Shown: positions 10,163 to 61,572 of the stretch, one piece after another
Position numbering within the stretch: position 1 is the first letter of the stretch
Layout: each line of letters starts with the position of its first letter
Assembly (NCBI GenBank): GCA_030535245.1
Contig: JAUNBJ010000002.1
Location: 2,418-66,417 of the forward strand
DNA from: Planctomycetia bacterium
GTDB lineage: Bacteria; Planctomycetota; Planctomycetia; Pirellulales; Thermoguttaceae
Direction of reading: 5' to 3'
DNA: 64,000 nucleotides
Program-made: the position numbers and the translations under genes
Notes under the pieces: generated by a model
What the model was told of the DNA's origin: nothing
What the model saw: the letters and a program-made list of their open reading frames with translations, nothing else
Databases searched by the model: none

Positions 10163-10173
10163 GATCCTCTCCC

Positions 10174-34865: not shown

Positions 34866-36104
34866 ATGATGAAGATTTTACATACCTCCGACTGGCATTT
34901 GGACGCGCGACTCTACAATCAACGCAGGTCGGCGGAGCATGAGGCTTTTTTGGAGTGGCTGCGGCAGACGATTCGTGAGCAGCAGGTGCAACTGTTGGTG
35001 GTGGCGGGCGATATTTTCGACAACCGGACGCCAACGCTGGAATCGCAGGAGCGGTACGTTGCGTTTCTCATGGGGTTGTACGAGGATTCGATCCGGGGAA
35101 AGAGCGTTTGCCGGAACGTCGTGCTGATTGGCGGGAATCATGATTCTGCGTCGTTTTTGGAGATTCCGAAACCGATTTTGCAGCACTTACGTATCCACGT
35201 CGTGGCGAGGAAGCCCGCGCGGTGGGACGATCTGGTGTTGGAAATGAAGGACGATGCGGGGAAAACGGAGGCGGTGGTTGCGGCGTTGCCGTTCCTGTCG
35301 GACGTCGATTTGCGTCGGAGCGTGGAGGGGGAAACCCTTGAGGAGAAGAACCGTCACCTGATGGAGGGGATTCGCGACGCGTACAAGACGCTGGCGGAAA
35401 TCGCGACGACCAAACGTTCCGCCATTTCTACGGAAGCGTTCGTGCCCCTCATCGCGACCGGGCATCTGTTCACGCAGGGGGGCGACGCGGGGGATGGCGT
35501 GCGGGAAATCTATACGGCGGGGAACTTGGAGAAATTCCCGGCGGCGTGGATTCCGGAGCGGTTTGACTACACGGCCCTGGGGCACCTGCATTTACCGCAA
35601 ACGGTGGGGGGGCGGGAGAACGTGCGCTACAGCGGGTCGCCGATTCCGGTCGGTTTTCAGGAGGCGAAAACGGCCAAGCAGGTCGTTCTGGTCACGTGGG
35701 AGGGGGATGGAAAGCGGAGCATCGAGTTGCGTGACGTTCCCCGGTTTCAGCGGTTGGAGACGGTATCGGGGGATTGGCCGGAACTGGAAGCGAGCCTGAA
35801 AACGTTGAAAAAGATGGATGAACCGGTCTGGCTCCAGGTGCGTTATACGGGGAAGGCATTTCGCCCCATGCTTCAGCGAGACGTGGAGGAACTTTTGGAA
35901 GATTCGTCGGTCGTTTTGCTGCATTTGCAGAGCACGGCGGCCAGCGACCGGGGGTTGGTGCCGAATTTTTCCGGGGAGACGCTGGAATCGCTGGAGCCGT
36001 TGGAGGTTTTTCGGCGGGTGCTGGACGCGTGTAAAATTCCGGACGAGGAGCGGGACGAATACATTCAGACGTATCGGGAGGTATGGGAATCATGCGGATT
36101 TTGA
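34866..36104 (+). CDS. sbcD: Exonuclease SbcCD, nuclease subunit D
   Basis: M(M)KILHTSDWHLD, GDIFD, GNHD and LGHLH calcineurin-like phosphoesterase motifs. Overlaps sbcC. Confidence 0.85.
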   Translation: MMKILHTSDWHLDARLYNQRRSAEHEAFLEWLRQTIREQQVQLLVVAGDIFDNRTPTLESQERYVAFLMGLYEDSIRGKSVCRNVVLIGGNHDSASFLEIPKPILQHLRIHVVARKPARWDDLVLEMKDDAGKTEAVVAALPFLSDVDLRRSVEGETLEEKNRHLMEGIRDAYKTLAEIATTKRSAISTEAFVPLIATGHLFTQGGDAGDGVREIYTAGNLEKFPAAWIPERFDYTALGHLHLPQTVGGRENVRYSGSPIPVGFQEAKTAKQVVLVTWEGDGKRSIELRDVPRFQRLETVSGDWPELEASLKTLKKMDEPVWLQVRYTGKAFRPMLQRDVEELLEDSSVVLLHLQSTAASDRGLVPNFSGETLESLEPLEVFRRVLDACKIPDEERDEYIQTYREVWESCGF

Positions 36105-39100: not shown

Positions 39101-39292
39101 CTCGATGAGGAAACGTTGCAGGCGGCATTGGAATCGCTTTCGTTGTTTCAATCGGGGGGCGGGGAGCAGAAGCTGATTGGCATTATTTCGCATGTGGAGA
39201 CCCTGAAAGAACGGATTGCGAACAAGATAGAAGTCCTTCCCGGAGCCATGGGCCGCAGCCGTTTGCAGGGTAACGGAATAAAAACAGGTTGA
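36092..39292 (+). CDS. sbcC: Exonuclease SbcCD, ATPase subunit C
   Basis: MRILKLRFRNLNSLAGEW. Walker A GPTGAGKTT. Long coiled coil with CPLCG zinc hook. C-terminal LSGGETFLVSLALAL signature and LFLDEGFG Walker B. Confidence 0.85.
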   Translation: MRILKLRFRNLNSLAGEWTVDFTDPAFAEDGLFAIVGPTGAGKTTILDALSLALFQRTPRLKNFSKTENEIMSRQTNDCMAEVTFSAEGKTYRASFEQKRSRAGSQNPFGEVKCELAQATGNADGDEVLATKKQAFEEKIKAILHLDFDQFSRSVLLAQGQFRDFLFRQSANERAELLEKITGTGIYTEISKKVSELYGQKKRILENQTTGLEALKAGLLGEEEAVRRAEEREKRIAELSPLEAELRELETQIARRKTLLSLESERATLEAHRKQCDADLAAFAPEKKQLERHRRAVPLKPLFRETEGLRKALAEKRTALETEKTAWETVSRNLEELLPQMVAAKASLQAAEQMQAEETPLLAKVRIWDQEIKNHEKAWNEAKQNLQKRRQHWEEIRRKRAGLESDKQRVEVVRQEQTALREARRERLGERTAAEILTALHTIQERHRNWQQMWDGVVAWEKNRENQAVQAETYARIVAEQTQYQAEQRAITAKLEALREEIASQNRTVQRSEDVENLKEYRSRLTEGEPCPLCGATHHPLELPQREITAERARQAALKEEEQRLLSRQVALAEKGGRLEADGKHSQQRLAERVEEETDLQQRLAVWTQQLALESLPEKEGIQAKITELEAEETELAEDSRQAADWDAKIAEKTSEMEALERNLKSWDALEVAEATAEREQTDALEETRKWETAYMASRKERQEKFQDKNPDDVERALAAAVREAHKEYSERKAQKEKWEMAVTMREVSWKRAASEVADGEFGLARQEAEWAEALRVAQFTDERDFLAAQLTQEEQERKEKRQEELHATDTRLKIQLQSVMERLEQERRQPAPTGNLEELLERQKRGKEQQKKTIECIGMLEEQLRRNRQLLEKVAEETAKIEGIQRETDRWQKLHQLIGGERNPRFRRLVQRLSLEILLGNANLQLQRLAPRYLLVLPSDDGDKELSIACRDTFFNDEIRPVSNLSGGETFLVSLALALGLSKMSSRNVPMESLFLDEGFGTLDEETLQAALESLSLFQSGGGEQKLIGIISHVETLKERIANKIEVLPGAMGRSRLQGNGIKTG

Positions 39293-39460: not shown

Positions 39461-42400
39461 ATGGCCAAACCATTTCTGCACATCAATCTTTCGGAGGAAG
39501 CGCAGTTCTTCCGTCCCGTCGCTCTGGAACCGGGGTGCCCCCTGTTTGACCCTACGAATGCCAACGATCGGATTCTTTTTCGTTGGTTTGGAGGGATGAC
39601 GCCGGAGCCGGAATGGGACGAAAACGGCCAGATTTTGCGATTTTTTATTCGGAACGATCAGGGGGGGCGTTTGGAGGACGTAACCTGCACGACCGTGACG
39701 AACGAGGATTTGAACGAGAAGTTGATTACGGAAATTGAGCGTCTGCAAGCGCGGTTCGAGCGGATTCGGGCCACCTCAACGACGGAGAAGATTTTACGGG
39801 AAAAACTTTCGGAAGAATTTCGGGATTTAATTGAGAATAAAAAGCGGCCGGATCGGACGTATTATTTCTTTAAGTATCAGGATGGCGGCGGGCTGACGCG
39901 GTTGGTCTGGATACCGGGGTATGCACCGATCCATCAGGAATATGGCGCGCCGATGATTTGTGACGACGAGGCGTGCAATCAGCTTTACGTGCGGCTGCCG
40001 GGGGCGAAGGCGCGGTGTCCGATCTGTTTGAAGGTTCCGACGGCGCGGCGGAAGGCGATAGAGGCGGCACGGCGGAAGCGGAATCGTTATTTGCTGCTCT
40101 GTTTTTTGCTGCTTTTGTGTGGATGGATTCTGTGGAATCAGTTTACGTTGAAGGTGAAGCCGGGGCCATGGAACACGTATGTGGGCTGTGCGTCGGACTT
40201 TCGGGTGATCACGCCGGGGCTGGATGGTTTTGGGCTGATTTTGTCGAAGGATGTGACGGACGAGGTTTTTAAGACGGTGGAGAATCCGTCGGTAGCCTGT
40301 TTTCCGGAGGGGGGAATGCGCGCGTACGCCGTCAGTCCGGGTGAGACGAAGATGCGGTTTTATTCTGGCTGGCGTTTTGGCGGGGTGAAGGTCACGGTTC
40401 ATCCGCCGGTGAATCCGAATCGGGTCTGGATTGAGCCGGAAAATATAACGCTGGCGGTCGGTTCGACGCAGCGGGTGAAGCTGATGGGCGAATACGAGGG
40501 GGGCCAGACGGCGGAGCTTTCGCAGAGCACGTATTGGGATTCGCGAAACGACGGGACGGTGTATCATTTTAATGGTTTCGTGGAGGGGTTGCAGCCTGGG
40601 GAAACGAACCTTTCGGCGAAATATCGTGCCACGCCCAAGGATGCGTGGATGGACGCTTCGGCCACGGTTTCGGTGGCGTCCAAGACGTTGGAGTCGCTGG
40701 AAGTCAAAGCGGTTCATGCGGGGCCTTTGCCGGTGGGGAAGAAGTCCCGGATTGAGGTTTTGGGCAAAACGGCGGAGGGGGAGGAGTATGCGTTTACAGG
40801 TTCTTCGCGTCTGGAGGCGGTGATTGATCCACCGTCGCTGGCGACGTACCAGGGGGAAACGATTCAAACGCTTCAGGCGGGCACGGGGCGATTGCAGGCG
40901 ACGTTGACCGACGGCACACCAGAGGGGGCGGCGCTTCAGACGGCGGAAATGGTGTTGGATATTGAGGATGTCGCGACGACGGCCCGGCTGCGGGTTTATC
41001 CGAAGGAAGCGTCGATTGCGGTGGACGAGCTGTTCCCGCTGTCGGTGGTGTGCGGGGATGTTTCGGCGTTGAAAATCACGTCGGCGAATCCGAAGGTGGT
41101 GCGTGTGGGGAAGGATCACTGCCTGATTGGGCGTTCGGCGGGGACGACGGAAATTACGGTGGAGGATGGTACCGGTTCGGTGGTGATTCCGGTGACGGTC
41201 GCGAACGTGAAGGCGGACGGGCTGGTGATGGTTCCGCCGTCGGGTGCGGTTCCGGTGGATCATGACACGACGTTCCGGTTCTTTGCGCGGGCAGGTTCGG
41301 AGCGGTATTATCCGCTGGCGCCGGGGGTGGTCAAGACCGACGCGGTGCCGAATGGGCGGTATGCGCTGGCGGACGGGCTGAAGGCGAGGGTTCGTGGGTT
41401 GAATCCGACGGATGCTGCCGATCCGCAGTCGGTAACGTTCAGCTACCAGGGGCAAAAGGCAAAGACGTCGGTCAAAGTGATTCCGGCGCCGTTGCGGTTG
41501 AAGATTACGCCGTCGGGGAAGGTGGCGTTGCCGTTGGGGTTGTGCATGACGTTTGACGGTTTCGCGGTTTATGGGGACGGGGTAAGCACGCTTGTTCCCT
41601 ACACGCGGATGGAGTGGAATACGGAACCTGCGGCGGCGGAAGTGGCCGGATTCGGGTTTGAAAAAGGAAAGGCGATGGCGTTGGACGTAGGGGCAGGGCC
41701 GGTGTCGATTTGGGGGAATTATTTTGGGACGGAATCGAATCGTGCGGAACTGACGACGACCGAGCGGACGGACGTGACGTTGGGGATCGAGGTGGATCGA
41801 ACGCTTCGGGTGGCCGGGGAGCCGGGGACGGCGATCCTGACGGGCAAGACGGTTCACGGGGATGTGGAGTTGGTTCCGAACGTGGGCAAATTCAGCACTT
41901 CCCAGGCGGACGTGGTGGCGGTTACGGGGGAGAATAGTGGCAGTTACAAGGCGGTGGCGGCGGGAGCGGCGTCGCTTTCGGCCACGCACCCTGCGGCGGA
42001 GCAGCCGGCGAGCGTCGATTTGCGGGTGGTTCATCCGCGAAACGCCCGGCTTTACTGGGAGCCGTCGGAAGTGAACGTGGCGGTGGGGGAGATTGCGCCG
42101 TTCCAGTTGATGCTGGAGGGGACGAACCCGGACGCTGCCGAGGGGGAGGAAACGGAGTGGTCGGTTCCGATGGATTCGCCGGGGGTGTACTATTCATTCG
42201 GAAAGCCGGACGCGGTTTTGTGGCGGAGTCCGACGTTATCTGGAATACAGCCAGCGGAGGCGTTTGACGTTTCGGCGTCGTATCTGCCGTATTTGAAGAA
42301 TCCGGCGCACGCGAAGGTTTCGGTATTTGGAGCCAATCCGCCGCAGGCGTTGCGGGTGGTGCCGTCGGAGGTTTCCCTGGCGCCGGGGCAGGCGATGAGT

Positions 42401-45400
42401 TTTGCGGTGGAGGAGCAGTTGGAAGGTGCGGAAGGCTTTACGGAAGTGCAGCCGGACGACGTGAAGTGGGAAGTTCCGAGGAATGTATACTGGCGTGGCC
42501 CGATGGGGCAGATTCGTCCGCAAGTGGAGATTCCGGCGGACGAGGCGGCGGGGAGTTTCACGCTGCGGGCGAAGTACCGTGGCAAGACGGCGGACGTAAC
42601 GGTTACGGCGGCGCCATCGACGTTGAACCCGGCGGATCCGGAGGTGGAGTTGTTGGTGCGGCGGTATCCGGCGGGGCGGTTGTTGCCGGTGGGGCAGGCG
42701 CAGAGCTATTCGATCTGGATGAAGAAGGGGGAGGTGGAGGAACCGGCGCCGAATGTCCGTTGGACGCCGGATTTTGAGAACGAATATTTGACGTGGAGTG
42801 CTCCGGTAATGGAGGCGACCAAGGCGGGCTTGACGCAGTGGATTACGGCGAAGGTGGGGGATCGTGCGGTGCGGTTCTTTACGCAGACGATGGATCCGTT
42901 TGTTCCGGGCGAGGTGCCGCCGCCGCGAGAGGGGGATCCGTCGGCCGTTCGGATTCTCAGCAACAGCGGTACGGAAGTATCCATGGCGGTGGGGGCGAAG
43001 TACGTGGACTATCGGGTGGAGGCGGAGTATCCGGACGGATTCATTCGTGTGGTGACGAAGGACGCGAACCTGCATCCGATTGCGGGGGACAAGTCGATTG
43101 TCAGTCCCAGCAACGGCGAGTTGACGGCGGTCAAGCCGGGGAAGGTGACGTTCATTGCCGAGTACATGGGGGTGGACAGCGAGGAGCCGCCCCTCACGTT
43201 GAACGTGACGGAGAGCGTGGATGTGGACGAGTTACGGCTGGAGCCGGACAAGGACATCCGTATGCTTCCGAACGAGACGGTGACGTTCCGGCTGCATGGC
43301 TACAAGGAAAAGAAGTCAGTCGGTTTGCTGACGGGGATGGGGAATATTGTCTGGAAGTCGGACAACGAGGCGGTCGCCACAACGCAGGGGCCGGTAACGA
43401 CTTCGGTGGCGTTGGGCAAGGCGAACATTACGGCGGAGTTGAATGGCGTCGTGAGCAAGCCGGCGGCGGTGGACGTGGTGGCGACGATCGACGAAAAGCT
43501 GGGGCCGACGGACAACGTGATCAAGATGTTGGTGGGTGAAAGCAAGCTGGTGGGGAAGGATTTTGCGCTCATCCGTGGGAATGTCGATTTCAGTATGCAG
43601 TGTGGTGTGACGCCGCTGGTTCCGGGGATTTGCGAGTATGACGCGACGCGTCATGCGTTGGTGGGGAAGGCGCCTGGGGCGACCGACGTGATCTTCACGA
43701 TGGCGGACAAGAAGGCGGTCATGCGGGTGATCGTGGGCGGTGTGGATGCGCAGACGCTGACGATGTTGAAAGAGGATGGCGAGATTATCGTGGAACCGGC
43801 AGCGGCGTCGATTTCGGCGGGCCAGGCGATCGAGCTGCGGGTTTACGCGGTATCCAAGGATCGTACGGTGCGGTTGGAGCGGACGGCAAGTGCGGTGTTC
43901 CGCAGCAGCGATCCGTCGGTCTGCGAGGTACGTGGTTTGCAGCTTTGCGGGCTGAAGCCGGGCGGCCCGGTGGAGATTACCGTGATGATTCCGGAGATTA
44001 CCGGGAAGGGGCGTTCGGGGAAGGCGTCGTTGACGGTGGACAATCATCCGATTACGGAACTGGTGGTGGAGCCGGGGGCGATTCGGATGTCGACGGGCGA
44101 CAAGTCGAATCTGTTTATTCAGGGGCGTAGTGCCAGCGGCCTGCTTCCGCTGTTTGCGCAGTCTCGGTTGAAGGTGGCGACGGACGGCCCGGCGGCTCGG
44201 ATGAACGGCATTCAGAGTGTCGAGGCGGCGGCTGCGGGGGACTGCAACGTGAATATTGATTGGGACGGCAAACTTCAGCGTTCGGTAGCGGTGAAGGTGG
44301 ACGACAATCCCTACACGAGCCTGGCGATCGACCCGGTGAGCACGACGTTGGCGGTGGGCGAGGGTCGCGCGTATCAGGTGACGGCGCTTCGTGGCGGTCG
44401 GTTGTACGTGCTTCAGCCGGAGACGGGGCTTCAGTTGACGACGGCGGATCCGAACGTGGCGGTGGTTCAGGGGAACATGGTTTTTGGCAAATCGGTGGGA
44501 CGTACGACGGTGGTCGCCCGGTTTGCGGGGCTGGTTTCGGAAGGAACGATCGACGTGGTGGAGCCGGGAGCGGTGCCGACGAGCGTCGAGGCGGCGTATG
44601 TGGATCCGAACGCGGCGGTAACGTACCGGACGGGCGACACGGTGCTGGACGGGGGGTATCGCGGGGTGGTCAGTACCGACGTATTTGGCGACGGTGTGGC
44701 GCCGTATGCGGTGACGGATTATGCGGTGACGGGCGTATCGGGGTTGCGGTTTGAGCCGGCGTCGATGCGGCTTTCGCGGTCGTCGGGGCCGGTAGCGGTG
44801 CGGGTGTTCGAGGAAATGTCGAACGGAACGCTGGGTCGTGAGGTCAGTAACGATCCGAATTTGAAGGTGGAATCCGCGTCGTCGGTGGTTCAGATCAGTC
44901 GTGCGGAGAATGGCCCATACATGATTCAGCCGGCGGGGAAGGATGGAACGGCGCGTGTATCGGCCACGTTGGGCGACAAGACGGCGTTGCCGATGTTCGT
45001 GCAGGTGGGCGAGGTTTCGGCGGCGGGGGCGGTGCTTTCGGCATTGCCGGGGACGTTGGAAATGAGCGTGGGGAACACGGCGGTGTTGGATTCGGTTCGG
45101 GTGATTCCGGACGCGGGGATGATGCCGTTTGACATTGCGTATCGTCTGACACCGACGGATGGTGGCGGCGTGGTTTCGGTGGAGGGAACGACGATCCGTG
45201 CAACGGCACCGGGCACGACGCGATTGCAGGTGACGTCGGTGGATCCGCAGGGGGTTTACGACAACATGACGACGTTCGTTCCGGTGACGGTAACCAAACC
45301 GTTGCAGTTGACGCTTTCTCCGATGGAATCGTCGTTGCGGGTGGGGGATCGGACGGCGCCGTTTGTGCTGATGGCGCGGGATGAAACGGGGGCGTCGTTC

Positions 45401-45874
45401 CCGGTTTCTGCGGCGTTTACGTCAACCGACCCGTCGATTTTGCAGCAGGACGCGATGGATCCGTCGCGATTCCAGGCGGTGTCGCTTGGGAGTGCCCAGG
45501 TGCGGGCATCCTATGGGGGGCAGGAGCTTTACGCGAATGTTTCCGTGGCGGGCGACCGATATTTGAATGTGGAGGGATCGCTCAGCGAGCGGGACAGCGA
45601 CTTTACGGTCATGCTGACGGTCACGGCGGGCAGCAGCCAGGGGGCGTTGGAGTATCGGATTTACGAGATGGGGAGCAATCCGCCGGACGCGTGGGTTCCG
45701 GGGACTCCGGGTGCGGACGGGCTGACGGTGATGCTGTCGAGTCCGGCGATTCGGTATCGGGGGCGCAACGACCAGTACACGTTGGTCATTGAGTCTCGGA
45801 CGGCGGGCGGCACGGACATACAGAAGTATCCTTACAATTTCCGGTTGGGGGCCATGATTAAGAAAGTGGACTAA
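39461..45874 (+). CDS. Giant (2137 aa) type-II membrane protein: cytosolic about 210-aa N-domain with Cys4 ribbon, one TM segment, then about 1900 aa of Big_2/Ig-like repeats
   Basis: No signal peptide. CDDEAC...CPIC at aa 167-189 (nt 39959-40027). TM segment YLLLCFLLLLCGWILW (nt about 40088-40138). Repeated Big_2-like units, e.g. ITSANPKVVRVGKDHCLIGRSAGTTEITVEDGTGSVVIPVTV. Confidence 0.8.
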   Translation: MAKPFLHINLSEEAQFFRPVALEPGCPLFDPTNANDRILFRWFGGMTPEPEWDENGQILRFFIRNDQGGRLEDVTCTTVTNEDLNEKLITEIERLQARFERIRATSTTEKILREKLSEEFRDLIENKKRPDRTYYFFKYQDGGGLTRLVWIPGYAPIHQEYGAPMICDDEACNQLYVRLPGAKARCPICLKVPTARRKAIEAARRKRNRYLLLCFLLLLCGWILWNQFTLKVKPGPWNTYVGCASDFRVITPGLDGFGLILSKDVTDEVFKTVENPSVACFPEGGMRAYAVSPGETKMRFYSGWRFGGVKVTVHPPVNPNRVWIEPENITLAVGSTQRVKLMGEYEGGQTAELSQSTYWDSRNDGTVYHFNGFVEGLQPGETNLSAKYRATPKDAWMDASATVSVASKTLESLEVKAVHAGPLPVGKKSRIEVLGKTAEGEEYAFTGSSRLEAVIDPPSLATYQGETIQTLQAGTGRLQATLTDGTPEGAALQTAEMVLDIEDVATTARLRVYPKEASIAVDELFPLSVVCGDVSALKITSANPKVVRVGKDHCLIGRSAGTTEITVEDGTGSVVIPVTVANVKADGLVMVPPSGAVPVDHDTTFRFFARAGSERYYPLAPGVVKTDAVPNGRYALADGLKARVRGLNPTDAADPQSVTFSYQGQKAKTSVKVIPAPLRLKITPSGKVALPLGLCMTFDGFAVYGDGVSTLVPYTRMEWNTEPAAAEVAGFGFEKGKAMALDVGAGPVSIWGNYFGTESNRAELTTTERTDVTLGIEVDRTLRVAGEPGTAILTGKTVHGDVELVPNVGKFSTSQADVVAVTGENSGSYKAVAAGAASLSATHPAAEQPASVDLRVVHPRNARLYWEPSEVNVAVGEIAPFQLMLEGTNPDAAEGEETEWSVPMDSPGVYYSFGKPDAVLWRSPTLSGIQPAEAFDVSASYLPYLKNPAHAKVSVFGANPPQALRVVPSEVSLAPGQAMSFAVEEQLEGAEGFTEVQPDDVKWEVPRNVYWRGPMGQIRPQVEIPADEAAGSFTLRAKYRGKTADVTVTAAPSTLNPADPEVELLVRRYPAGRLLPVGQAQSYSIWMKKGEVEEPAPNVRWTPDFENEYLTWSAPVMEATKAGLTQWITAKVGDRAVRFFTQTMDPFVPGEVPPPREGDPSAVRILSNSGTEVSMAVGAKYVDYRVEAEYPDGFIRVVTKDANLHPIAGDKSIVSPSNGELTAVKPGKVTFIAEYMGVDSEEPPLTLNVTESVDVDELRLEPDKDIRMLPNETVTFRLHGYKEKKSVGLLTGMGNIVWKSDNEAVATTQGPVTTSVALGKANITAELNGVVSKPAAVDVVATIDEKLGPTDNVIKMLVGESKLVGKDFALIRGNVDFSMQCGVTPLVPGICEYDATRHALVGKAPGATDVIFTMADKKAVMRVIVGGVDAQTLTMLKEDGEIIVEPAAASISAGQAIELRVYAVSKDRTVRLERTASAVFRSSDPSVCEVRGLQLCGLKPGGPVEITVMIPEITGKGRSGKASLTVDNHPITELVVEPGAIRMSTGDKSNLFIQGRSASGLLPLFAQSRLKVATDGPAARMNGIQSVEAAAAGDCNVNIDWDGKLQRSVAVKVDDNPYTSLAIDPVSTTLAVGEGRAYQVTALRGGRLYVLQPETGLQLTTADPNVAVVQGNMVFGKSVGRTTVVARFAGLVSEGTIDVVEPGAVPTSVEAAYVDPNAAVTYRTGDTVLDGGYRGVVSTDVFGDGVAPYAVTDYAVTGVSGLRFEPASMRLSRSSGPVAVRVFEEMSNGTLGREVSNDPNLKVESASSVVQISRAENGPYMIQPAGKDGTARVSATLGDKTALPMFVQVGEVSAAGAVLSALPGTLEMSVGNTAVLDSVRVIPDAGMMPFDIAYRLTPTDGGGVVSVEGTTIRATAPGTTRLQVTSVDPQGVYDNMTTFVPVTVTKPLQLTLSPMESSLRVGDRTAPFVLMARDETGASFPVSAAFTSTDPSILQQDAMDPSRFQAVSLGSAQVRASYGGQELYANVSVAGDRYLNVEGSLSERDSDFTVMLTVTAGSSQGALEYRIYEMGSNPPDAWVPGTPGADGLTVMLSSPAIRYRGRNDQYTLVIESRTAGGTDIQKYPYNFRLGAMIKKVD

Positions 45875-52635: not shown

Positions 52636-55260
52636 ATGGGAACTTATCAATGCAGTAAATGTGGTTATTGCCTTCAGCAGCCGACCGAACCGTTTCATTG
52701 TCCGCAGTGTGGCAGTCAGGGAATTGGACTGTTCCGTGCCATGCCGGACGGTGGGGGTTTTGGTGGGGCGCCGCAGGGGGGTGGTTATCGCCCGCAGCAG
52801 GGGGGATTTTCTCCGAACGGTGGTTATGGTGCCCCGCAGCAGGGGGGGGGATACTCGCCGAATCCGGGGGGATATACCACGAACCGGCCATGTTTTGGTG
52901 GGGCGCCGCAGGGGGGGGGAAACCCATCGCAGCAGCAGCCGTCGGGCGGTTTTGGGGGATATTCGCCGCAGCCGAACAACACCTTTAACGCACCGGGGCA
53001 AGGGGGGGGATACCGTCCGCAGCAGCCCGGTTTTGGGGGACAGCAGCCATCGACGGGGGGATATCGTCCGCAGCAGCCGTTTGGCGGCCCGCAGCAACCG
53101 TTTGGAGGGCAGCAGCCGTCGGGCGGTTTTGGGAGCGGTCAGGCGGGGTATCCGTCCAATGGTGGGGGGTATCGTCCGCAGCAGCCGTTTGGCACGCAAC
53201 CTGCCGGAGGTATGCCGGGTGGCTCAGTTCCGGGTGGCTCAGTTCCGGGGGGTTCGGTACCGGGCGGGGCGATCCGGGGTGGTTTTGGCGGGATGAACCC
53301 AGGCAATGCGGCCAATCGGATGCCGTTTGGGGGGCAACCGCAGCAGCCGCAGCAACCGTTTGGTTCTCAGCCGCAGCAGCCGTTTGGCGGGCAAGTGCAG
53401 GCTCCGTTTGGGGGGCAGCCACAACAGCCATTTGGCGGACAACCGCAGCAGCCACAGCAACCGTTTGGTTCCCAGCCGCAGCAGCCGTTTGGGGGGCAGC
53501 CGCAACAGCCGCAGCAACCGTTTGGGGGCCAGCCGCAGCAGCCGTCCGCATTTCCGTCGCAGCCGTTTGTGCCGCAGGCTCCGGTGCAGGAACCGATTCC
53601 GCAGGCACCGGTACAGGCCCCCATGCCGCAGGCGCCCGTACAGGCTCCAGTTTCGCAAACTCCCATGACGGAGCCGGTACCGCAGCCGGTTCCTCAGGTT
53701 CCGGTGCAGCCCTCCGTTCCTCAGACGCCACCACCGTCGCCGCAGCCGCCCACGCAGGCACCCATGCCGCAGCGTCCGGCACAGGCTCCGGTACAGCGAC
53801 CAGCGGCTCAGGCGCCCGTGCAGCGTCCAGCGCCGCAGGCTCCGGTGCAGCGACCGGCGGCACGTCCGGCACCGCGTCCGGCGCCGCAGCAGCAACGGCC
53901 CGCGCCGCCGCGACAGAATTTTCCCGCCCCGCCCAGCATGGAGGAAGCACCGGCGAAAAAGTCAAAGCCGGCGCCGAAACCGGGGATTCAGGTACGGGGC
54001 AAGCCGATTCCGAAGCAACCGGCGGGGCGTCCTGCGTCGGCCAACGATCCCAAGGCGCGTCCGCGTTATCGTGCTCCGGAACCCCGTCCGCAGGTTCGGC
54101 CGGATGTGGACCGTCCAGAGCGGTGTTTCTGGGGATTCCCGGAGGTTCCGCCATTTACCTGCGACGCGAAGCCGATGAAAAACGCTCCGGTGCTTGACGA
54201 CAAGGGGCGGTTGGTGCTGGTTTCGCAGGGGAGCCTGTACGCGATAGACATTACCACACCGGAGCCGGAGATTTGCTGGGAGTACATCATCAAGTCGCAC
54301 GTTCCGGGGCCGATTGTCGTGGATGCGGAGGGGGATTATCACCTTCACAGTGCGGACGGCTACCTGCATTGCGTTACGAAGCATGGCAAGCAGTCGTACA
54401 TGCCGGTACAGATTGGCGAACCGTTGGGGTATGCCGCGCCGGTTGTGGACGCATGGGGCAACACCATCGTCAGCGATTACAACGGCGGGTTGATTCGTGT
54501 GTCGAAGGAGGGGAAGAAGGATTCGCGTCCTTATTTCCGGTGCCGTGCGAAGCTGGATTCGTCGGGGGTGATTGCGGGCGAAACGCTCTACATCGGTTCG
54601 GAGGAAGGGTACCTGTTCGCCATTCAGCTTGGGGAAGTGGGGAAAAACCTCTGGGATCAGGGGGCCGAAGTGGGTTACGCGGGGGGCTTTTTGAACTCGT
54701 CGCCGGCGGTGACGAAAGACGGGATTATCGTCGTCGCCACGCGAACGGAGAAGTTGATGGGTTTCCTGCCCAGTGGGGAGGTGGCCTGGTCCACGCACAT
54801 GCCGGGGCAGCTTTTGGGTTCGCCGGTGATCGACGCGTACGGGCACATTTACGTGGGGGCCAGCTTGTCAACCCGTCAGGGGGGGCAGGGGTATCTGGTC
54901 AGCGTGGATGGGAATTCGCACAAAATCCGCTGGCAGTTTCAGGCCGAGGAGATGGTGGAGTGTACGCCGGTGGTGGGGGACGACGGCACGATTTACTTCG
55001 GGGACAACGCCGGCTGGGTGTATGCCGTTTCGCCGCGAGGGGACAAGAAATGGGGCGTCCGATTTGAGGCTCCGGTCCGTTCGGCGGGAACGATTGTGGC
55101 CCCGAACGTGCTGGCATTTGCGTTGGACGACGACGTGCTGGTGGGCATCCGTTGCGAATCGACCGACCTGGGGGGCGACTGGCCGAAGTTGGGGCGTGAC
55201 AATTACCACTCGTTTGTTGGGCCGACGCCTCCACCGGTGGTGATTGGTTCGGAAGAATAA
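52636..55260 (+). CDS. Cytosolic Zn-ribbon / FG- and PQ-rich disordered region / PQQ-like beta-propeller protein
   Basis: CSKC...CPQC at aa 6-25. aa 40-300 are G/P/Q-rich with about 17 FG dipeptides (QPFGGQPQQ units). aa about 305-495 are Pro-rich (PQAPVQ units). aa about 515-874 have PQQ/BamB-like repeats (GTIYFGDNAGWVYAVSPRGDKKW). No signal peptide or TM segment. Confidence 0.75.
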   Translation: MGTYQCSKCGYCLQQPTEPFHCPQCGSQGIGLFRAMPDGGGFGGAPQGGGYRPQQGGFSPNGGYGAPQQGGGYSPNPGGYTTNRPCFGGAPQGGGNPSQQQPSGGFGGYSPQPNNTFNAPGQGGGYRPQQPGFGGQQPSTGGYRPQQPFGGPQQPFGGQQPSGGFGSGQAGYPSNGGGYRPQQPFGTQPAGGMPGGSVPGGSVPGGSVPGGAIRGGFGGMNPGNAANRMPFGGQPQQPQQPFGSQPQQPFGGQVQAPFGGQPQQPFGGQPQQPQQPFGSQPQQPFGGQPQQPQQPFGGQPQQPSAFPSQPFVPQAPVQEPIPQAPVQAPMPQAPVQAPVSQTPMTEPVPQPVPQVPVQPSVPQTPPPSPQPPTQAPMPQRPAQAPVQRPAAQAPVQRPAPQAPVQRPAARPAPRPAPQQQRPAPPRQNFPAPPSMEEAPAKKSKPAPKPGIQVRGKPIPKQPAGRPASANDPKARPRYRAPEPRPQVRPDVDRPERCFWGFPEVPPFTCDAKPMKNAPVLDDKGRLVLVSQGSLYAIDITTPEPEICWEYIIKSHVPGPIVVDAEGDYHLHSADGYLHCVTKHGKQSYMPVQIGEPLGYAAPVVDAWGNTIVSDYNGGLIRVSKEGKKDSRPYFRCRAKLDSSGVIAGETLYIGSEEGYLFAIQLGEVGKNLWDQGAEVGYAGGFLNSSPAVTKDGIIVVATRTEKLMGFLPSGEVAWSTHMPGQLLGSPVIDAYGHIYVGASLSTRQGGQGYLVSVDGNSHKIRWQFQAEEMVECTPVVGDDGTIYFGDNAGWVYAVSPRGDKKWGVRFEAPVRSAGTIVAPNVLAFALDDDVLVGIRCESTDLGGDWPKLGRDNYHSFVGPTPPPVVIGSEE
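53323..53545 (+). repeat. In-frame tandem DNA repeats encoding (Q)PFGGQPQQ(PQQ) units
   Basis: Reiterated ccgtttggnnnncagccgcagcag units. Two about 57-nt segments (about 53335-53390 and about 53440-53496) are near identical. Confidence 0.7.
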
Positions 55261-55293: not shown

Positions 55294-56613
55294 ATGGCGA
55301 TGTTGAATCGACGGGATTTTTCGCGGGTGGTTGCGGCGATGGGCGCAGCGGCGGTTTTACCTTCGGGGGTTTCGGGGGAGGAGCCGGCGTCGCGTGGGAA
55401 GAAGTGGTATCGTGGCAACCTGCACATGCACACGTTCCGTTCCGACGGGGTGGCGTTTGCCGAGGAAGCGGCGGCGTTGTACAAGCGGCTGGGGTATCAT
55501 TTCGTCTGCCTGACCGATCACAATAGCGTTCATGAATCGGACGACCGTTGGGTGAAGCTTGGGCAGAAGAAATTAACGGAGGCGCACGTGGCCCGCTATC
55601 GGGAAACGTTCGATTTTCCGCTGGAGGAACGGGAGGAAAATGGGGAGAAGGCGTATCGCCTCAAGACGTTCGCGGAAATGGGGGCGTTACTCAACGAGCC
55701 GGATCGGTTCCTGTTGCTTTCGGGGATGGAGTATAGTGGCACGGTGAAGAACCGGCACGAGGTGCATACCAATTTCATCAACGTGCGTCAAAATCATCCG
55801 TGGGTGGCGAAGGAGACGACGGCGGAGAATATCGACTGGAGTTTGGAGCTGTACCGCAGCATGGCGAACGAGCAGACGATTTACACGATGAACCACCCCC
55901 TCTGGCGGTTTTACGACATCGACCCCATGGATTTGGTGAAGCGTCCGGAGATACGGTTTTTCGAGGTGGCGAATGTGGAGGCACGGCCGCTGTTCCATGC
56001 GCCAGTGGAGTTTTGGACGCACGATAAATTCTGGGACATTGTGAACGCATTTCGGGCGCGGCGGGGGGAACCGCTGTTGTACGGTACGGCGACGGACGAT
56101 ACGCATGGTTATAACATGTTCTATCGCAAGCCGGATTTTGTGGGATATGTGATGGTGCACGCGGCGGAGCTTTCGGAAGGGGGGCTGATTTCGGCGATGA
56201 AGGCGGGTGATTTTTACGCTTCGACCGGGTTGACGCTGAACACGATGGCATTCGATCGTGCTACGGGGACGCTTTCCGTCGAAGTGGCTCCAGAGCCGGG
56301 GTATGCTTATACGATTCAGTTTATCGGCACGAAGCGGGATTTCGACCCCACCGTTTTGCGGGAGGTGGAACATCAGGCGCAAGGGGTCATGCCGTCGTGG
56401 TGGAAGGGGGGGGAGCTGCCGAAGCGGAAACTGGCGGTCTATTCCGATTCTATTGGACAGGTGCTGGGCGAGGTGCGTGGCACGGTCGGGAGTTACACGC
56501 TCCGGCCCGACGACCTTTACGTCCGGGCGAAGATTTTTACGCAGAAAATTTCGTATAACGAGTGGGAACATCCTTCCAGTCCGATTGCCTGGACGCAGCC
56601 GTATTCCCGGTAG
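55294..56613 (+). CDS. TAT-signal PHP-domain (CehA/McbA-like) metallohydrolase
   Basis: GGGAGGAGG RBS. MAMLNRRDFSRVVAAMGAAAVL twin-Arg signal. GNLHMHTFRSDG PHP motif. Confidence 0.7.
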   Translation: MAMLNRRDFSRVVAAMGAAAVLPSGVSGEEPASRGKKWYRGNLHMHTFRSDGVAFAEEAAALYKRLGYHFVCLTDHNSVHESDDRWVKLGQKKLTEAHVARYRETFDFPLEEREENGEKAYRLKTFAEMGALLNEPDRFLLLSGMEYSGTVKNRHEVHTNFINVRQNHPWVAKETTAENIDWSLELYRSMANEQTIYTMNHPLWRFYDIDPMDLVKRPEIRFFEVANVEARPLFHAPVEFWTHDKFWDIVNAFRARRGEPLLYGTATDDTHGYNMFYRKPDFVGYVMVHAAELSEGGLISAMKAGDFYASTGLTLNTMAFDRATGTLSVEVAPEPGYAYTIQFIGTKRDFDPTVLREVEHQAQGVMPSWWKGGELPKRKLAVYSDSIGQVLGEVRGTVGSYTLRPDDLYVRAKIFTQKISYNEWEHPSSPIAWTQPYSR

Positions 56614-56913: not shown

Positions 56914-59430
56914 TTGGGCCTGATTCTGGCGATGGGTTGCGGGATGGCGGCGTATGGTGTCGAGATTGGGTCAGGCACGACGATTACCGTTACCAATACG
57001 GACTGGGCGACGAAACTTCCCGACACGATGAACTTTTCCGGCGGAACGCTGGTGATCAATCCCACATCAGATATTACCATTTCACGTAATGCGGTCTTTG
57101 CGGCCAACACGACCAGTACCATCACCTCAGGTGGCAGTGCCACGTCACTGTTAAGCGGGGCACTTTCCGGTTCGGGAACAATTACCAAAGGCGGTACCAC
57201 CCAGCAGTTGCATTTTTCGGGTAATAATTCCGCATTTACCGGAACGTTGAACGTCAGTTCCAATTGGGTCAATTTCCGAAATACCGGAGCGGCTCTTTCC
57301 TCTGGAACGGTTAACTTCAATGGTGGCACGGGATTTGTTCTGGTTCCTTCGGCCAATGGGGAGGTTTTCGCTTTCGGCATGATTACTTCCAGCACGGGAA
57401 CTCCAGAAGTCCGGGTTACTGGCGGAAACGCATACGCCGCAACGATTCGGGTCGGCGGAACCAACGCCAGTGGAACGTTTGCTGGTAAGATGCTCGATAA
57501 CTCCACCAATACGGCTCTTTCGGTCGAGAAGGTTGGCACGGGAACATGGACGCTCACGGGAACCAGTTCGTATACGGGAGCCACCACCATTTCCGCAGGA
57601 ACGCTTCAACTGGGCAATGGGACGGCTTCCGGGTTTTTGGGGGGCATGATGGCTGTAGACGGTGCATATACCGGGACAGCGACTGCGATTACCGTGGCAT
57701 CGGGGGCAACGCTTGCTTTTAACAATGTCGGTAACGCGACCAGAACGCATAACACGATTACATTCAACGGCGGTAATCTGTCGGTTACAGGGGCGCAAGT
57801 CAATCTGGGAGGAACGGTTGCGGGAACGGAACTGATCAAAATCGGTTCGGGAACGGCATTCTTCCAGGGGGGGACGACTTCTAATAACGCGACGGTTACG
57901 GTTGGCAAAATTGTCGTCAATGCGGGGGTACTCGCCAACAAAGCGGCACTGACCGCCACCACCACCGACATTACCGTCAACGATGGCGGTACGTTCCAGA
58001 TCGGTTCAGCAACTTATCCAAAAATAGGTTCCGTTCATGCGTCCACCAACATTACCGTCAATACGGGCGGCACGTTTGCCGTGTATGAGAATACGATAAC
58101 AAACGCGATTACGTTCGACGGTGGAAATATCACCTCGAACGATAAAAATGCGACGTTCAGTGGAGCGTTGGATGGCAGTGGACTTGTGAAAACCGGCACA
58201 GGTACGATTACGCTTACCCAGAATTATGCCGGAACCGTCAGTGTTTCTGCCGGGAAGCTGGTTTCCACGGCATCGGTTACGGGAAATATTACGGTAAATG
58301 GCAGTTCTTCCATCCTGCAACTTGGTCTTGGTTCTGAAGGCAGCTCGGGAAGTCTGGGAACGAACACCATTACGCTTTCCAACGGTGGAACGTTTGGTTT
58401 GAATCGTACCGATAGTAATAATTTCAACCTACAGAACAGTATCACGGTTAGCAACGGTGGAACCATTGCCAATTACGGTTCCAAAAACCTCGTTTTGCAG
58501 GGGACGGTTTCCGGGAACGATCTGACACTTTCCAATGAAGGTACGGGGAACCTGTTTTTGCAGAACTTGAGTAGCGAGTGGCCATCCGATTTCACGGGGC
58601 TGACCGGAACGTTGACGATTGCGAAGGGAACCGTAATCAACAAAAATCCCGCCGTCGGAAATGCCGCGAATCCGCTTTCCGTGGTCGTGAAGGATGGGGC
58701 GACGCTCCAGATGGGAAATATCTACAACAACAGCGTTTCCCAAATCCACGGTACGATTGAACTGGAATCGAGGGCCAATTTGATGCTGGGATATGCTCCA
58801 AGTGGGACGACGGCGACGTACGCGAACGACATTTCCGGTGCGGGAACCATCTCCGCAGCATACGGAACCACGGAATTGACCGGTGATAACAGTGCTTTCA
58901 CCGGAGCGGTTAACGTTGGCAGTAATTACACATTGATCGCAAGCGGAGACCAGACGCTCGGCAATTCTGCGGTGACGCTCCGAAGCAACGGCACGCTGGA
59001 AGTTGCGGGCGATCAGAACCTCAAGTCGCTGACACTGGGGGAAAATTCCGATTTAACGCTGGAATCGGGAACGGTTTCCGTTGCGGATAGCTTTGCGGCG
59101 GCAAGCGGTTCGGAGATTACGTTCCTCCTGTCCAATATGGATTCCGCAACCCTCGACCTGAACGGTACTGCCACGTTTAATGACGTTATGGTGTATCTGG
59201 ATACCGTAGAAACGCTTGACATTTGGAAATCGTATGATTTTCTACAGACGGCGATGGCGGAGGGGATTTCTTTTGCTTTGTCCACGAACCTGTTATCGCA
59301 GGGGATGGTGTTGCGATTTACGGAGACGGGATATGCGGTGCAGAATGCGGCGGCATTTCCGGAACCGGCGACCTGGACGTTGTTTTTGCTTATGGGGGTG
59401 TGGATGTGGCGAAAACGTCGAGGGGCTTGA
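56914..59430 (+). CDS. PEP-CTERM-anchored surface protein with autotransporter-associated beta-strand (PATR) repeats; 5' end probably frameshifted
   Basis: Repeats such as GTGTWTLTGTSSYTGATTISAGTLQLGNG. C-terminal FPEPATWTLFLLMGVWMWRKRRGA. The ORF-track start is a TTG without RBS or n-region. A better start (GGAGGAAAAG-ATG at 56775) is 1 nt out of frame. Confidence 0.8.
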   Translation: MGLILAMGCGMAAYGVEIGSGTTITVTNTDWATKLPDTMNFSGGTLVINPTSDITISRNAVFAANTTSTITSGGSATSLLSGALSGSGTITKGGTTQQLHFSGNNSAFTGTLNVSSNWVNFRNTGAALSSGTVNFNGGTGFVLVPSANGEVFAFGMITSSTGTPEVRVTGGNAYAATIRVGGTNASGTFAGKMLDNSTNTALSVEKVGTGTWTLTGTSSYTGATTISAGTLQLGNGTASGFLGGMMAVDGAYTGTATAITVASGATLAFNNVGNATRTHNTITFNGGNLSVTGAQVNLGGTVAGTELIKIGSGTAFFQGGTTSNNATVTVGKIVVNAGVLANKAALTATTTDITVNDGGTFQIGSATYPKIGSVHASTNITVNTGGTFAVYENTITNAITFDGGNITSNDKNATFSGALDGSGLVKTGTGTITLTQNYAGTVSVSAGKLVSTASVTGNITVNGSSSILQLGLGSEGSSGSLGTNTITLSNGGTFGLNRTDSNNFNLQNSITVSNGGTIANYGSKNLVLQGTVSGNDLTLSNEGTGNLFLQNLSSEWPSDFTGLTGTLTIAKGTVINKNPAVGNAANPLSVVVKDGATLQMGNIYNNSVSQIHGTIELESRANLMLGYAPSGTTATYANDISGAGTISAAYGTTELTGDNSAFTGAVNVGSNYTLIASGDQTLGNSAVTLRSNGTLEVAGDQNLKSLTLGENSDLTLESGTVSVADSFAAASGSEITFLLSNMDSATLDLNGTATFNDVMVYLDTVETLDIWKSYDFLQTAMAEGISFALSTNLLSQGMVLRFTETGYAVQNAAAFPEPATWTLFLLMGVWMWRKRRGA

Positions 59431-59538: not shown

Positions 59539-59697
59539 AGAATGAGTAGGATATTATGGGTTGAAATTTTTGGGATACTTCTGCTTTCTTGTGTAAACCG
59601 AGAAATATTAAGAAGATAACAATACCGGGTTCCCTTTCGGTGCTTGAAAAAGCGACGTGAAAAAAGGGACATTAGCCGGAGAGTTTTTGGACAAGCC

Positions 59698-61572
59698 ATG
59701 GCAAACATCGTCCTTGACGATTATTTAACGATGCTTCAGAAATCGCGCCTGTTCGAGGATAAGGCGGAGATTGAAGGGTATCTTGCGAGCTGGCGGGCGG
59801 ACGAGGGAACGACCGATCCGGACAGCGTACCTTCTTTTTCGGATTGGCTGGTTGCGAACGATCACGTTACGCGCTGGCAGGCGGATAACATATTGGCAGG
59901 AAAATACAAGGGATTTTTCCTGGGCCAGTACAAGCTGCTCCGTTCGATTGGTGCGGGCGGGATGAGCAGCGTTTATTTGGCGGTGCATACGCTTTTAGAG
60001 CGTCAGGTCGCGATCAAGGTGTTGCCGAAAAGTCGGGTAACGACCGATTCGTCGTATCTGGAGCGGTTTCTTCTGGAAGCGCAGGCGGTAGCGGCGTTGG
60101 ATCATCCGAACATTGTGCGGGCGTACGATATCGACAATGAAGGGGGTTCCATTTACTATTTGGTGATGGAATTTGTGGATGGGCCGGATTTGTTGTCGTT
60201 GGTAAAAAAGAATGGGCCGTTGGATATTTACAAGGCGGCGCAGTACATTCGTCAGGCGGCGATAGGGCTGGAATATGCGCACAACAACAGGCTGATTCAC
60301 CGGGACGTGAAGCCGGCGAACCTGTTGGTGGACAAGGACGAAATCATTCACGTGCTGGATTTGGGGCTGGCCCGGTTTACGGACGAGCGGCGTGCTTCGT
60401 TGACGATCGCGTATGATGAAAACGTTTTGGGGACGGCCGATTATTTAGCGCCGGAGCAGGCGCGGAACAGTCACAACGTGGATGGTCGTGCGGACATCTA
60501 CGGGTTGGGCTGCACGTTGTATTATCTGTTGGTCGGGCATGTTCCGTTCCCGGACGGGACGCTTCCTCAGCGGATTGCGGCGCACCAGAAGCGAATGCCG
60601 AAGGCGATTCAGGAGGAGCGTCCGGAGGTTCCGGAAGATTTATGTGCCATTTGTTGGAAGATGATGGCCAAAGACCCGAACGATCGCCAGCAGACGATGC
60701 AGGAGGTGGCCGACGATTTGACCGACTGGCTTCTGGAAAACGGTCAGAAGATTGCGGGGTATACGGGGGTTTTACCCACCCGTAAAAAGGCAGCGCAGAC
60801 GACGGATTCCGGCGTGGTTTTGGAAGGAGACGCCTTAAAGGAGCTGGAGGCGATTGCGCAAATTGCGGTATCGGATTCGCGGCACGACGAGTCCTCGGTG
60901 ACGAAGGGGTTGTTCCATTTCTCCAAAGCGGGCGGTAGTTCTGTGAGTAAATCTGCCGAGACGGTGGTTTCGGGGGGTTCGGACAGTAGCCGTAAAAAGG
61001 AGCCGGTCAAGAAGGAGTCGCCCAAGGGGGGGCTGTTTGGTTTCGTTCGGAAGCCGGAGAAGGGTTCCAAGGCGGAAAAAAATTCCAAGCCGGAAAAGGG
61101 TTCCAAGAGTGGTACGGTAGTAACGGGGAAAACCACGTCGTCGTCGGTGGTGAAGAAATCGGGAGAGCAGCAGAAGCAGGACGAGTCGTCGTTCATGAAC
61201 TTTCTGAATGAGAAGGAGCGGTTCCGTCCGGGCAAGGGGGAGACCGGTTCCGGTACGGTCAAGGCGGACGACAGTCACATGGCGTTCAACGTGGTGAATC
61301 TGAATTTGGATTTGAATTCCGGTTCCACGCCGTCGTCCCCGTCGTCGCCGTCAAAGAGTTCCAAGGTATCGCTTTCGGCCCCCTCCCAGAAAACGGGTGG
61401 GAGTTCCAAATCGGGGCGTAAATCGGCACCGGCGAAATCGGATTCCAAAACCGATTCCAACGGGGGAGCGGGTTATAAGAAAAAGCAGACCAGCAAGCAG
61501 GAAACGTGGATGGTGATCGGGATTTGTGCTGCGGTACTGGTCGTGTTGATCATCATTGCCTGCCTGCTTTGA
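59698..61572 (+). CDS. Ser/Thr protein kinase with long K/S-rich disordered tail and C-terminal TM anchor
   Basis: I prefer the ATG at 59698 (MANIVLDDYL) over the TTG at 59644. Motifs GAGGMSSVY, VAIKVL, HRDVKPANL, DLGLA, GTADYLAPE. The last 21 aa are WMVIGICAAVLVVLIIIACLL. Confidence 0.85.
   Translation: MANIVLDDYLTMLQKSRLFEDKAEIEGYLASWRADEGTTDPDSVPSFSDWLVANDHVTRWQADNILAGKYKGFFLGQYKLLRSIGAGGMSSVYLAVHTLLERQVAIKVLPKSRVTTDSSYLERFLLEAQAVAALDHPNIVRAYDIDNEGGSIYYLVMEFVDGPDLLSLVKKNGPLDIYKAAQYIRQAAIGLEYAHNNRLIHRDVKPANLLVDKDEIIHVLDLGLARFTDERRASLTIAYDENVLGTADYLAPEQARNSHNVDGRADIYGLGCTLYYLLVGHVPFPDGTLPQRIAAHQKRMPKAIQEERPEVPEDLCAICWKMMAKDPNDRQQTMQEVADDLTDWLLENGQKIAGYTGVLPTRKKAAQTTDSGVVLEGDALKELEAIAQIAVSDSRHDESSVTKGLFHFSKAGGSSVSKSAETVVSGGSDSSRKKEPVKKESPKGGLFGFVRKPEKGSKAEKNSKPEKGSKSGTVVTGKTTSSSVVKKSGEQQKQDESSFMNFLNEKERFRPGKGETGSGTVKADDSHMAFNVVNLNLDLNSGSTPSSPSSPSKSSKVSLSAPSQKTGGSSKSGRKSAPAKSDSKTDSNGGAGYKKKQTSKQETWMVIGICAAVLVVLIIIACLL

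Follow-up and report, generated by a model that had tools for sequence, protein, structure and literature searches.

What might a protein that joins a zinc-binding-type knuckle, a long region rich in phenylalanine-glycine (FG) dipeptides and a beta-propeller be doing at the end of an operon of NTPase genes in a planctomycete? Such a protein is encoded in the window, by which we mean the whole 64,000-nucleotide stretch analyzed here (contig JAUNBJ010000002.1 of assembly GCA_030535245.1, from a Planctomycetia bacterium of the Thermoguttaceae). A sequence-only reading had described it as a cytosolic protein that could act as a scaffold or condensate-forming element for its neighbors. We find that the protein is real and was correctly described, since every count in that reading (cysteines, FG dipeptides, and GGYRPQQ units) matched on recount, and that it is a conserved, previously undescribed, and often misannotated partner of the planctomycetal SrfB and SrfC genes. 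The role that we tentatively favor, with a confidence that stops just short of even, is that of a cytoplasmic adaptor subunit of an Srf-like machine, in which two docking modules would be held on a flexible tether.

The gene is an open reading frame (ORF) on the forward strand with an ATG start and a product of 874 residues, and a record from another assembly (P0001) holds the identical 874-residue protein. Its parts, with the evidence for each, are the following:

52636-55260, + strand: whole gene for the 874-residue protein with zinc knuckle, disordered linker, and eight-bladed propeller (ORF, translation, and architecture of orthologues).
52636-52743, + strand: residues 1-36, putative rubredoxin-like zinc knuckle, CxxC-12-CxxC (motif, weak profile matches, and AlphaFold2).
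52744-53550, + strand: residues 37-305, low-complexity region rich in G, Q, P, and F (Y) (composition, shuffle test, Tandem Repeats Finder [TRF], and predicted local distance difference test [pLDDT]).
53206-53292, + strand: residues 191-219, GGMPGGSVPGGSVPGGSVPGGAIRGGFGG, a tandem triplicate of a semi-conserved island (orthologue comparison and alignment).
53551-54057, + strand: residues 306-474, proline-rich, net basic linker with PQAPVQ and APVQRPA units (composition and TRF).
54058-54123, + strand: residues 475-496, basic lead-in RPRYRAPEPRPQVRPDVDRPER before the first propeller strand (invariant alignment columns R475-R496).
54124-55170, + strand: residues 497-845, eight-bladed PQQ/BamB-type beta-propeller (Pfam PQQ_2, Foldseek, and pLDDT).
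55171-55260, + strand: residues 846-874 and stop codon, a tail with a conserved W-P-K-L-G motif, otherwise disordered (alignment and AlphaFold2).

In the AlphaFold2 model, for which 22 family sequences were the input and whose pLDDT serves as our proxy for disorder, only residues 1-36 (pLDDT 83-91, short strands) and about 480-845 (pLDDT 74-96, all-beta) fold. Residues from about 37 to 475 have no secondary structure and a pLDDT of 32-56 (32-49 for residues 37-305), which climbs to 61-84 at residues 475-496, and the last 29 residues are unstructured. The order of zinc ribbon, intrinsically disordered region, and PQQ-like propeller that had been read from the sequence is shared by the orthologues, and in 41 related loci one uninterrupted reading frame joins knuckle and propeller. 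Nearly all invariant alignment columns fall in the knuckle and in residues 475-874, and the linker between them is essentially unalignable even where the propellers are 70-85% identical.

At the N-terminus, MGTYQCSKCGYCLQQPTEPFHCPQCG, the predicted cysteines were located as C6/C9 and C22/C25, which gives CxxC-12-CxxC over residues 6-25, two pairs about 12 residues apart on short strands as in a rubredoxin-like zinc ribbon. Rubredoxin-like and zinc-ribbon models of Pfam and NCBIfam match this knuckle with E values of 2e-4 to 6e-3, all below the curated cut-offs. It is the most conserved N-terminal element, with the consensus M.T[FY].C..CG....QP T.P[FY].CP.CG.Q.[IV]GLF, and it stands at the ORF start in 41 of the 55 loci that no contig end interrupts; the 14 failures include frame-shifted-looking upstream translations, one run of N, and a variant second knuckle (L046 and L050). 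When 1.84 billion representative proteins were searched exhaustively with a 38-residue knuckle query, the knuckle was found nowhere other than at the N-terminus of this family, beyond generic rubredoxin-like repeats; the family matches included fragments or frame-shifted copies. The RUBY_RBDX, RCKP-type, and DUF7129 mini-domains share the CxxC-12-CxxC pattern and the short strands, the distant matches being tandem rubredoxin-like knuckles, whereas only the present family has the loop QP[TS].P[FY] between the knuckles and the tail GLF.

At the other end, the proposed PQQ/BamB-like propeller was borne out by Pfam PQQ_2 (53.6 bits against a threshold of 27.6) and, as an eight-bladed fold, by Foldseek, which places the model closest to the designed Cake8 (TM score 0.90, root mean square deviation 2.6 A), with TM scores of 0.77 to YxaL and 0.70-0.77 to BamB. 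In sequence it matches the designed 8-9 blade Cake and Scone propellers and the archaeal PQQ-like protein 3hxj, and the fold and blade repeat are common to BamB, YxaL, 3hxj, and Cake. The propeller of the window protein has a net charge of -16, and distant homologues carry a lead-in motif ([KR]P.P[KR].RP...RP..) related to that in front of its first strand.

The genomic context supplies the second line of evidence. Five genes lie on one strand of the window, separated by gaps of 34-179 nucleotides, with this one at their 3' end; the four that precede it are the following:

39461-45874, + strand: giant single-pass membrane protein, 2137 residues (hydropathy, sequence, faint Ig-like Pfam matches, and homologues in the loci).
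46053-48659, + strand: SrfC-like "Virul_Fac" protein, 868 residues (Pfam PF10139, E 1.7e-54).
48700-51525, + strand: SrfB family protein, 941 residues (Pfam PF07520, E 1.9e-84).
51637-52590, + strand: upstream partner g4, 317 residues, with a coiled coil, a five-helix bundle, and a small C-terminal beta domain (synteny and AlphaFold2).

We scanned loci of this family with one genome per species, which gave 62 loci. The gene order of the window recurs identically in the five loci that have deposited gene calls. By tblastn, the SrfC-like gene, SrfB, g4, and the knuckle-propeller gene are colinear in 37 of the 39 loci whose upstream sequence extends to 9 kb or more (all but L059 and L067), so that the suggested link to neighboring Hsp70-fold and P-loop genes holds across the family. 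In all seven loci with 3-9 kb upstream, g4 adjoins the gene, and homologues of the giant protein occupy the same position in the loci; genes 3' of the module are not conserved. Across the set, identities are 62-91% for the SrfC-like protein and SrfB, 45-85% for the propeller, and 32-72% for the giant protein. This conservation of SrfB and SrfC appears unusually high for a toxin or defense locus. A PADLOC search for anti-phage defense with six proteins gave no significant match, the sole match being a weak one to SrfB (E 0.004), and the lack of significant matches led us to discard an anti-phage defense locus as a candidate.

The family itself is almost confined to Planctomycetota. A search with the full-length protein returned 10 matches of 51-82% identity, all of three-part architecture with identical-looking knuckles; because the low-complexity words swamped this query, a propeller-only search was made, which gave 231 matches at E ≤ 1e-10, those with a named source being labeled Planctomycetota. 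All but two of the 62 loci carry such labels (Thermoguttaceae, Pirellulales, Planctomycetia, and similar), and the closest derive from ruminant and other gut samples. The two others are metagenome-assembled genomes (MAGs): the Chitinophagaceae-labeled L048 is a 3.4-kb contig with g4 and the knuckle, probably a binning error, and the Bryobacterales-labeled L067 holds a propeller fragment of 42% identity but no Srf genes.

The third line of evidence is that a linker is present in every member, with a length of 87-508 residues and a proline content that is always 15-44%. The sequence-only reading had allowed that the disordered region might be absent from orthologues and hence a lineage-specific junk expansion; because every orthologue has one, of at least 87 residues, the region is not dispensable junk. 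The charge pattern is also shared, the median net charges over 38 members being +3 for the N-terminal half of the linker, +14 for its C-terminal half, and -10.5 for the propeller.

No transmembrane-like or signal-like stretch precedes the propeller, as judged by hydropathy, either in the window protein (maximum Kyte-Doolittle hydropathy over 19 residues [KD19], 0.45; best 8-residue window within the first 50 residues, 1.19) or in 41 complete family members (KD19 < 1.0), in agreement with the absence of a signal peptide noted earlier. Because a four-cysteine knuckle lies at the extreme N-terminus and no signal-like segment is seen, the protein is probably cytoplasmic. The remark that PQQ-type propellers are usually periplasmic stands as a tendency, but the matches include the cytosolic ACSF4 propeller and that of the AfsK kinase. 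Two named families were considered and rejected. BamB identity fails on score (TIGR03300, 40 bits against 285.2; NF008351, 35.8 against 423) and, as a lipoprotein, on its N-terminus, which is the knuckle MGTYQCSKCG... without a hydrophobic h-region by hydropathy; a PQQ-dependent dehydrogenase or quinoprotein fails on score as well (TIGR03075, 14.8 bits against 480). Unlike BamB, the protein thus lacks a lipoprotein signal, places a knuckle and a disordered region of about 460 residues before the propeller, and has Srf genes as genomic partners.

An adaptor would fit the strict synteny, the conservation of both folded ends, and a linker that is obligatory yet free to evolve. We propose that the protein would be the fifth, cytoplasmic subunit of a Planctomycetota-specific Srf module that also comprises the single-pass giant envelope protein, the SrfC-like P-loop NTPase, the SrfB ATPase, and the coiled-coil protein g4. 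The knuckle and the acidic eight-bladed propeller, one at each end, would serve as docking modules, and the low-complexity segment of 87-508 residues, uncharged at first and then basic and proline-rich, as the tether. We infer that the protein may bridge two partners of one machine, or neighboring machines, at the cytoplasmic face of the membrane. The giant protein, through its cytoplasmic domain, is a candidate partner along with g4 and the SrfB and SrfC-like NTPases; its single transmembrane segment and cysteine-containing N-terminal domain would provide a membrane anchor for the cytoplasmic proteins, as has been proposed for SrfA (bioRxiv 10.64898/2026.09.18.752743). For the basic half of the linker, either the acidic propeller or acidic lipids could be a binding partner. 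In gut Thermoguttaceae, tandem duplication would have lengthened the tether into a G/Q/P repeat with regularly spaced F or Y, which may add weak self-association.

Several points weigh against this adaptor proposal. The five-fold range of linker length speaks against a precise spacer; the location was judged from hydropathy, which is no signal-peptide predictor, and the protein may be exported by a non-classical route; in Xenorhabdus, a toxin role has been reported for SrfABC (PMC6950479); and the putative folds of SrfB and SrfC are assigned from motifs only.

The main competitor concerns the tether, and weighing it requires a closer look at the linker of the window protein. Residues 37-305, 269 in all, consist of 29% G, 20% Q, 19% P, and 7% F, with only eight charged residues (K+R 7, D+E 1). 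The roughly 17 FG dipeptides reported from the sequence are exactly 17 on our count, 17 of the 20 phenylalanines preceding a glycine, and the other reported elements were all located: four GGYRPQQ units (at residues 49, 124, 141, and 177), a GGSVPGGSVPGGSVPGG stretch at about residues 196-212, and the proline-rich segment of PQAPVQ and APVQRPA units. We also counted nine QPFG[GST] units. In 20,000 shuffles of residues 37-305, FG occurred 5.5 ± 1.9 times, with a maximum of 14; because none reached 17, the FG count, which is about three-fold above the expectation from composition, is no by-product of that composition. The proline-rich part is different in character, residues 306-500 being 31% proline with 24 K+R against 9 D+E.

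Could this linker be a neutral spacer, its FG and aromatic repeats being functionless slippage by-products in GC-rich DNA that encodes proline and glycine? Its DNA would be compatible with such an origin. Residues 37-305 are underlain by diverged tandem repeats (TRF periods of 15, 21, 24, 33, and 57 nucleotides, 68-92% match), and repeats of 27 and 12 nucleotides lie under residues 306-474. The failure of the linker to align between relatives with 70-85% identical propellers points the same way, as do its length range and the fact that several lineages have short P/A-rich, aromatic-free linkers. On the other side, linkers of the gut clade, to which the window belongs, are rich in G, Q, N, and M and carry 15-22 F, 4-10 Y, and no W; although the sequence turns over, the ten other gut-clade members each keep 21-28 aromatics, with a median spacing of 8-11. 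The codons for F and Y are AT-rich and not favored by slippage in GC-rich DNA, and aromatic-rich long linkers with F, Y, or W occur in separate branches. In addition, an island, PGG.[VI]PGGA[IV]R, has persisted throughout the gut clade and also in a remote one (L036, L045, and L062, as PGGAVPGGAIRPPQ[FY]) whose propeller is only about 50% identical; the window has it in triplicate as GGSVPGGSVPGGSVPGGAIRGGF (the GGSVPGG triplet), and in yet another clade HGG[VI]SPI.APPPPPG occupies the corresponding position. We therefore regard a purely neutral spacer as somewhat unlikely.

If the aromatics matter, they might define the main function, namely that of a cohesive, prion-like sticker-spacer region that forms a condensate or hydrogel to concentrate the Srf-like NTPases. 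Aromatic, G/Q/P-type low-complexity sticker-spacer regions are found in the FUS-type prion-like domain and in the G/Q/P-rich linker of E. coli SSB. The window linker resembles these in its composition, in that its 32 aromatics recur with a median spacing of 8 and have G, P, or Q as neighbors, and that charges are few; it differs in having no sequence homology to them and in tethering two folded modules. The excess of FG over expectation would suit such a scaffold. So would the repeated origin of aromatic-rich linkers with different aromatics: outside the gut clade, linkers have 10-20 Y, or about 10 W in WPAQPG-type units, or are short, of P/A type, and free of aromatics, and in a neighbor-joining tree of the propeller, the aromatic-free clades separate the aromatic-rich ones. 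This topology suggests several independent expansions, and is only indicative because the tree has no support values. The aromatic-rich tethers have a sticker-spacer composition and may self-associate, but because many members lack aromatics, self-association is not the ancestral role, nor is it essential to the family. We consider a condensate scaffold as the main job distinctly unlikely. A stronger form of this idea, in which selection repeatedly gave F-, Y-, or W-rich linkers, with a different aromatic each time, for the sake of an FG-like cohesive phase by which an NTPase machine spanning the envelope is clustered or gated at the cytoplasmic membrane of Planctomycetota, strikes us as improbable; if true, it would be a bacterial convergent counterpart of FG-type cohesive domains.

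A further alternative turns on the SrfB partner, of which the protein could be a co-chaperone-like regulator or a substrate mimic, with g4 as nucleotide-exchange factor. The idea is attractive in outline, because DnaJ, too, has a G/F region and a zinc-finger domain, of which the zinc module and the Gly/Phe-rich segment are reminiscent, and because SrfB carries DFGNSRTG (146-153), DIGGGTSD (532-539), and LAGQPSK (715-721), invariant or nearly so in 20 sequences and following one another as do the phosphate-1, phosphate-2, and adenosine motifs of actin/Hsp70 (ASKHA)-type ATPases. By eye, moreover, g4 is laid out like GrpE, with a long helix, a helical bundle, and a small beta domain (mean pLDDT 71.5, and >90 for residues 167-270). 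However, no operon protein has a Pfam or NCBIfam J-domain (DnaJ) match, the HPD motif itself not having been searched, and the G/F richness is confined to one clade. The likeness of g4 to GrpE, an idea prompted by the appearance of its C-terminal motif, also failed: hhalign against planctomycete GrpE gave a probability of 0.6%, a PDB profile search gave coiled coils only, and neither Pfam (no match) nor Foldseek (none with E < 0.1) recognized g4. We judge a co-chaperone role very improbable.

The SrfC-like protein has an invariant Walker A motif (GPSQVGKS) and a DxPG motif. Single-sequence and profile searches of SrfB and SrfC against PDB sequences found nothing, and a literature search on their Pfam accessions or fold assignments yielded nothing useful. 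The giant protein consists of an N-terminal domain of about 210 residues with a cysteine cluster, one transmembrane segment (212-230), and about 1900 residues of Ig-like repeats. Its cluster, CDDEAC...CPIC at residues 167-189, lies before the transmembrane segment and is a second putative metal-binding knuckle in the operon.

Since the giant neighbor is mostly extracytoplasmic, the protein might alternatively be an exported cargo, an effector, or a periplasmic BamB-like factor moved by the Srf machine, its unfolded segment aiding translocation. Besides the description of SrfABC as a tripartite toxin (PMC6950479), this would accord with the fact that the propeller fold comes nearest to BamB and YxaL, whose site of action lies outside the cytoplasm. 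Against it stand the hydropathy profiles of the 41 members, the metal knuckle at the very N-terminus, the low score of the BamB equivalog, the slow evolution of the module, and its lack of significant PADLOC matches; we find export barely plausible.

Least of all do we credit an FG-nucleoporin analogue that forms a selective barrier at a pore of a compartmentalized planctomycete, for FG counts, which reach 3-17 in the gut clade, fall to 0-2 in all others, the propeller is of PQQ/BamB type rather than a Nup-type folded domain, and the partners are Srf proteins, not a pore scaffold. Nup159 and Nup214 are FG-nucleoporins with a propeller, and the window protein does resemble them in combining a low-charge, disordered FG-rich region (17 FG in 269 residues, pLDDT < 50) with an adjoining beta-propeller in one polypeptide; it differs in propeller type and domain order, in its G/Q/P-rich spacers, and in having no pore or karyopherin context. 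Pore-like structures have been claimed for planctomycetes. A Gemmata protein with only 5 FG in 200 residues, less dense than the window's 17 in 269, was proposed as a possible FG-repeat protein (bioRxiv 10.1101/076430); the same caution applies to the denser window protein, and our matches are Thermoguttaceae and Pirellulales MAGs, not Gemmata. Even within the gut clade, FG drops to as few as 3 because the commonest context of phenylalanine shifts from F-G to F-Q or F-N. As a family property, then, the analogy drawn from the sequence did not survive, the linkers having F, Y, W, or no aromatics. The FG-rich character appears to be a local elaboration of a variable tether, peculiar to the gut lineage; the resemblance is compositional and lineage-specific, and homology is not supported.

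Some features around the module are recorded here in their own right. A perfect AATACGG tandem repeat (2.6 copies, 52612-52629) lies just 5' of the ATG, within the 45-nucleotide gap after g4. In one gut Thermoguttaceae sub-clade, a YbaB_DNA_bd-like gene of 109-114 residues is inserted between g4 and the knuckle-propeller gene (L001:9561-9890, L002:9574-9918, and also L008, L010, L011, L014, and L017); it is absent from the window, L006, L015, and L016. Downstream, the window continues on the + strand with a PHP/CehA-McbA-type metallohydrolase (55294-56613), which has a twin-arginine-like N-terminus (MAMLNRRDFSRVVAAMGAAAVLPSG) and starts 34 nucleotides 3' of the module; because it is kept there only in L006, and weakly in L009, it is probably outside the module. 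A PATR-repeat, autotransporter-passenger-like protein (56914-59430, +) and a Ser/Thr protein kinase (59644-61572, +) follow, neither being adjacent to the module in other loci. Directly 5' of the giant gene lies an SbcD (Metallophos and SbcD_C)/SbcC (AAA_23 and SbcC_Walker_B) pair (34779-39292, +), and before it a 606-residue multi-ankyrin protein (32759-34579, -; Ank_2, E 8e-37). Between about 28000 and 36000, the GC skew changes sign, negative to positive, at the point where coding moves from the - to the + strand, and the cumulative skew has its minimum near 33-34 kb; gene orientation or a replication landmark could explain this.

How does the operon relate to the SrfABC system of Salmonella and Xenorhabdus? 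The likeness lies in bona fide SrfB (PF07520) and SrfC-family (PF10139) genes on the same strand, and in the SrfA-like bitopic layout of the giant neighbor, with a cytoplasmic N-terminal domain, one transmembrane segment, and an extracytoplasmic C-terminal part. SrfA has been proposed to be bitopic, and SrfABC was recently reinterpreted as a membrane-anchored complex (bioRxiv 10.64898/2026.09.18.752743). The window differs in its gene order (A-like, C, B instead of A, B, C), in an A-like protein of 2137 residues with Ig-like repeats, and in two extra conserved genes, g4 and the proposed adaptor. For the giant protein, neither NCBIfam nor Pfam gave a SrfA match and no SrfA homology is detectable, so that the bitopic topology alone is analogous. 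The flanks described for proteobacterial srf loci comprise a Lol-like ABC transporter, vWA proteins, and an FGE-type enzyme, with no mention of a g4-like or propeller gene (bioRxiv 10.64898/2026.09.18.752743). To judge from gene content, the operon reads as a variant of srfABC.

Many database entries of the family have only 350-460 residues because the gene calls are truncated to the propeller; in L005, for example, the deposited 399-residue call (10001-11200) lies inside an 854-residue ORF (8636-11200) that opens with MNTYRCTQCGCQIQRPTQPFSCPQCGRQAVGLFR and continues into a P/G/W-rich region. In public gene sets the family often appears as a bare propeller under the name "outer membrane protein assembly factor BamB", with knuckle and linker out of sight.

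SrfB and SrfC occur widely and have been given conflicting labels such as "virulence factor" and "toxin". The strictly conserved five-gene set, present in free-living and gut Planctomycetota, gives them two new obligate partners, and this strict conservation, together with slow evolution, is a pointer to a cell-biological machine rather than a toxin. The family also constitutes a natural experiment on bacterial disorder, in which the folded ends have stayed constant while the linker spans a five-fold range of length and has taken on F-, Y-, W-rich, or aromatic-free chemistry by branch.

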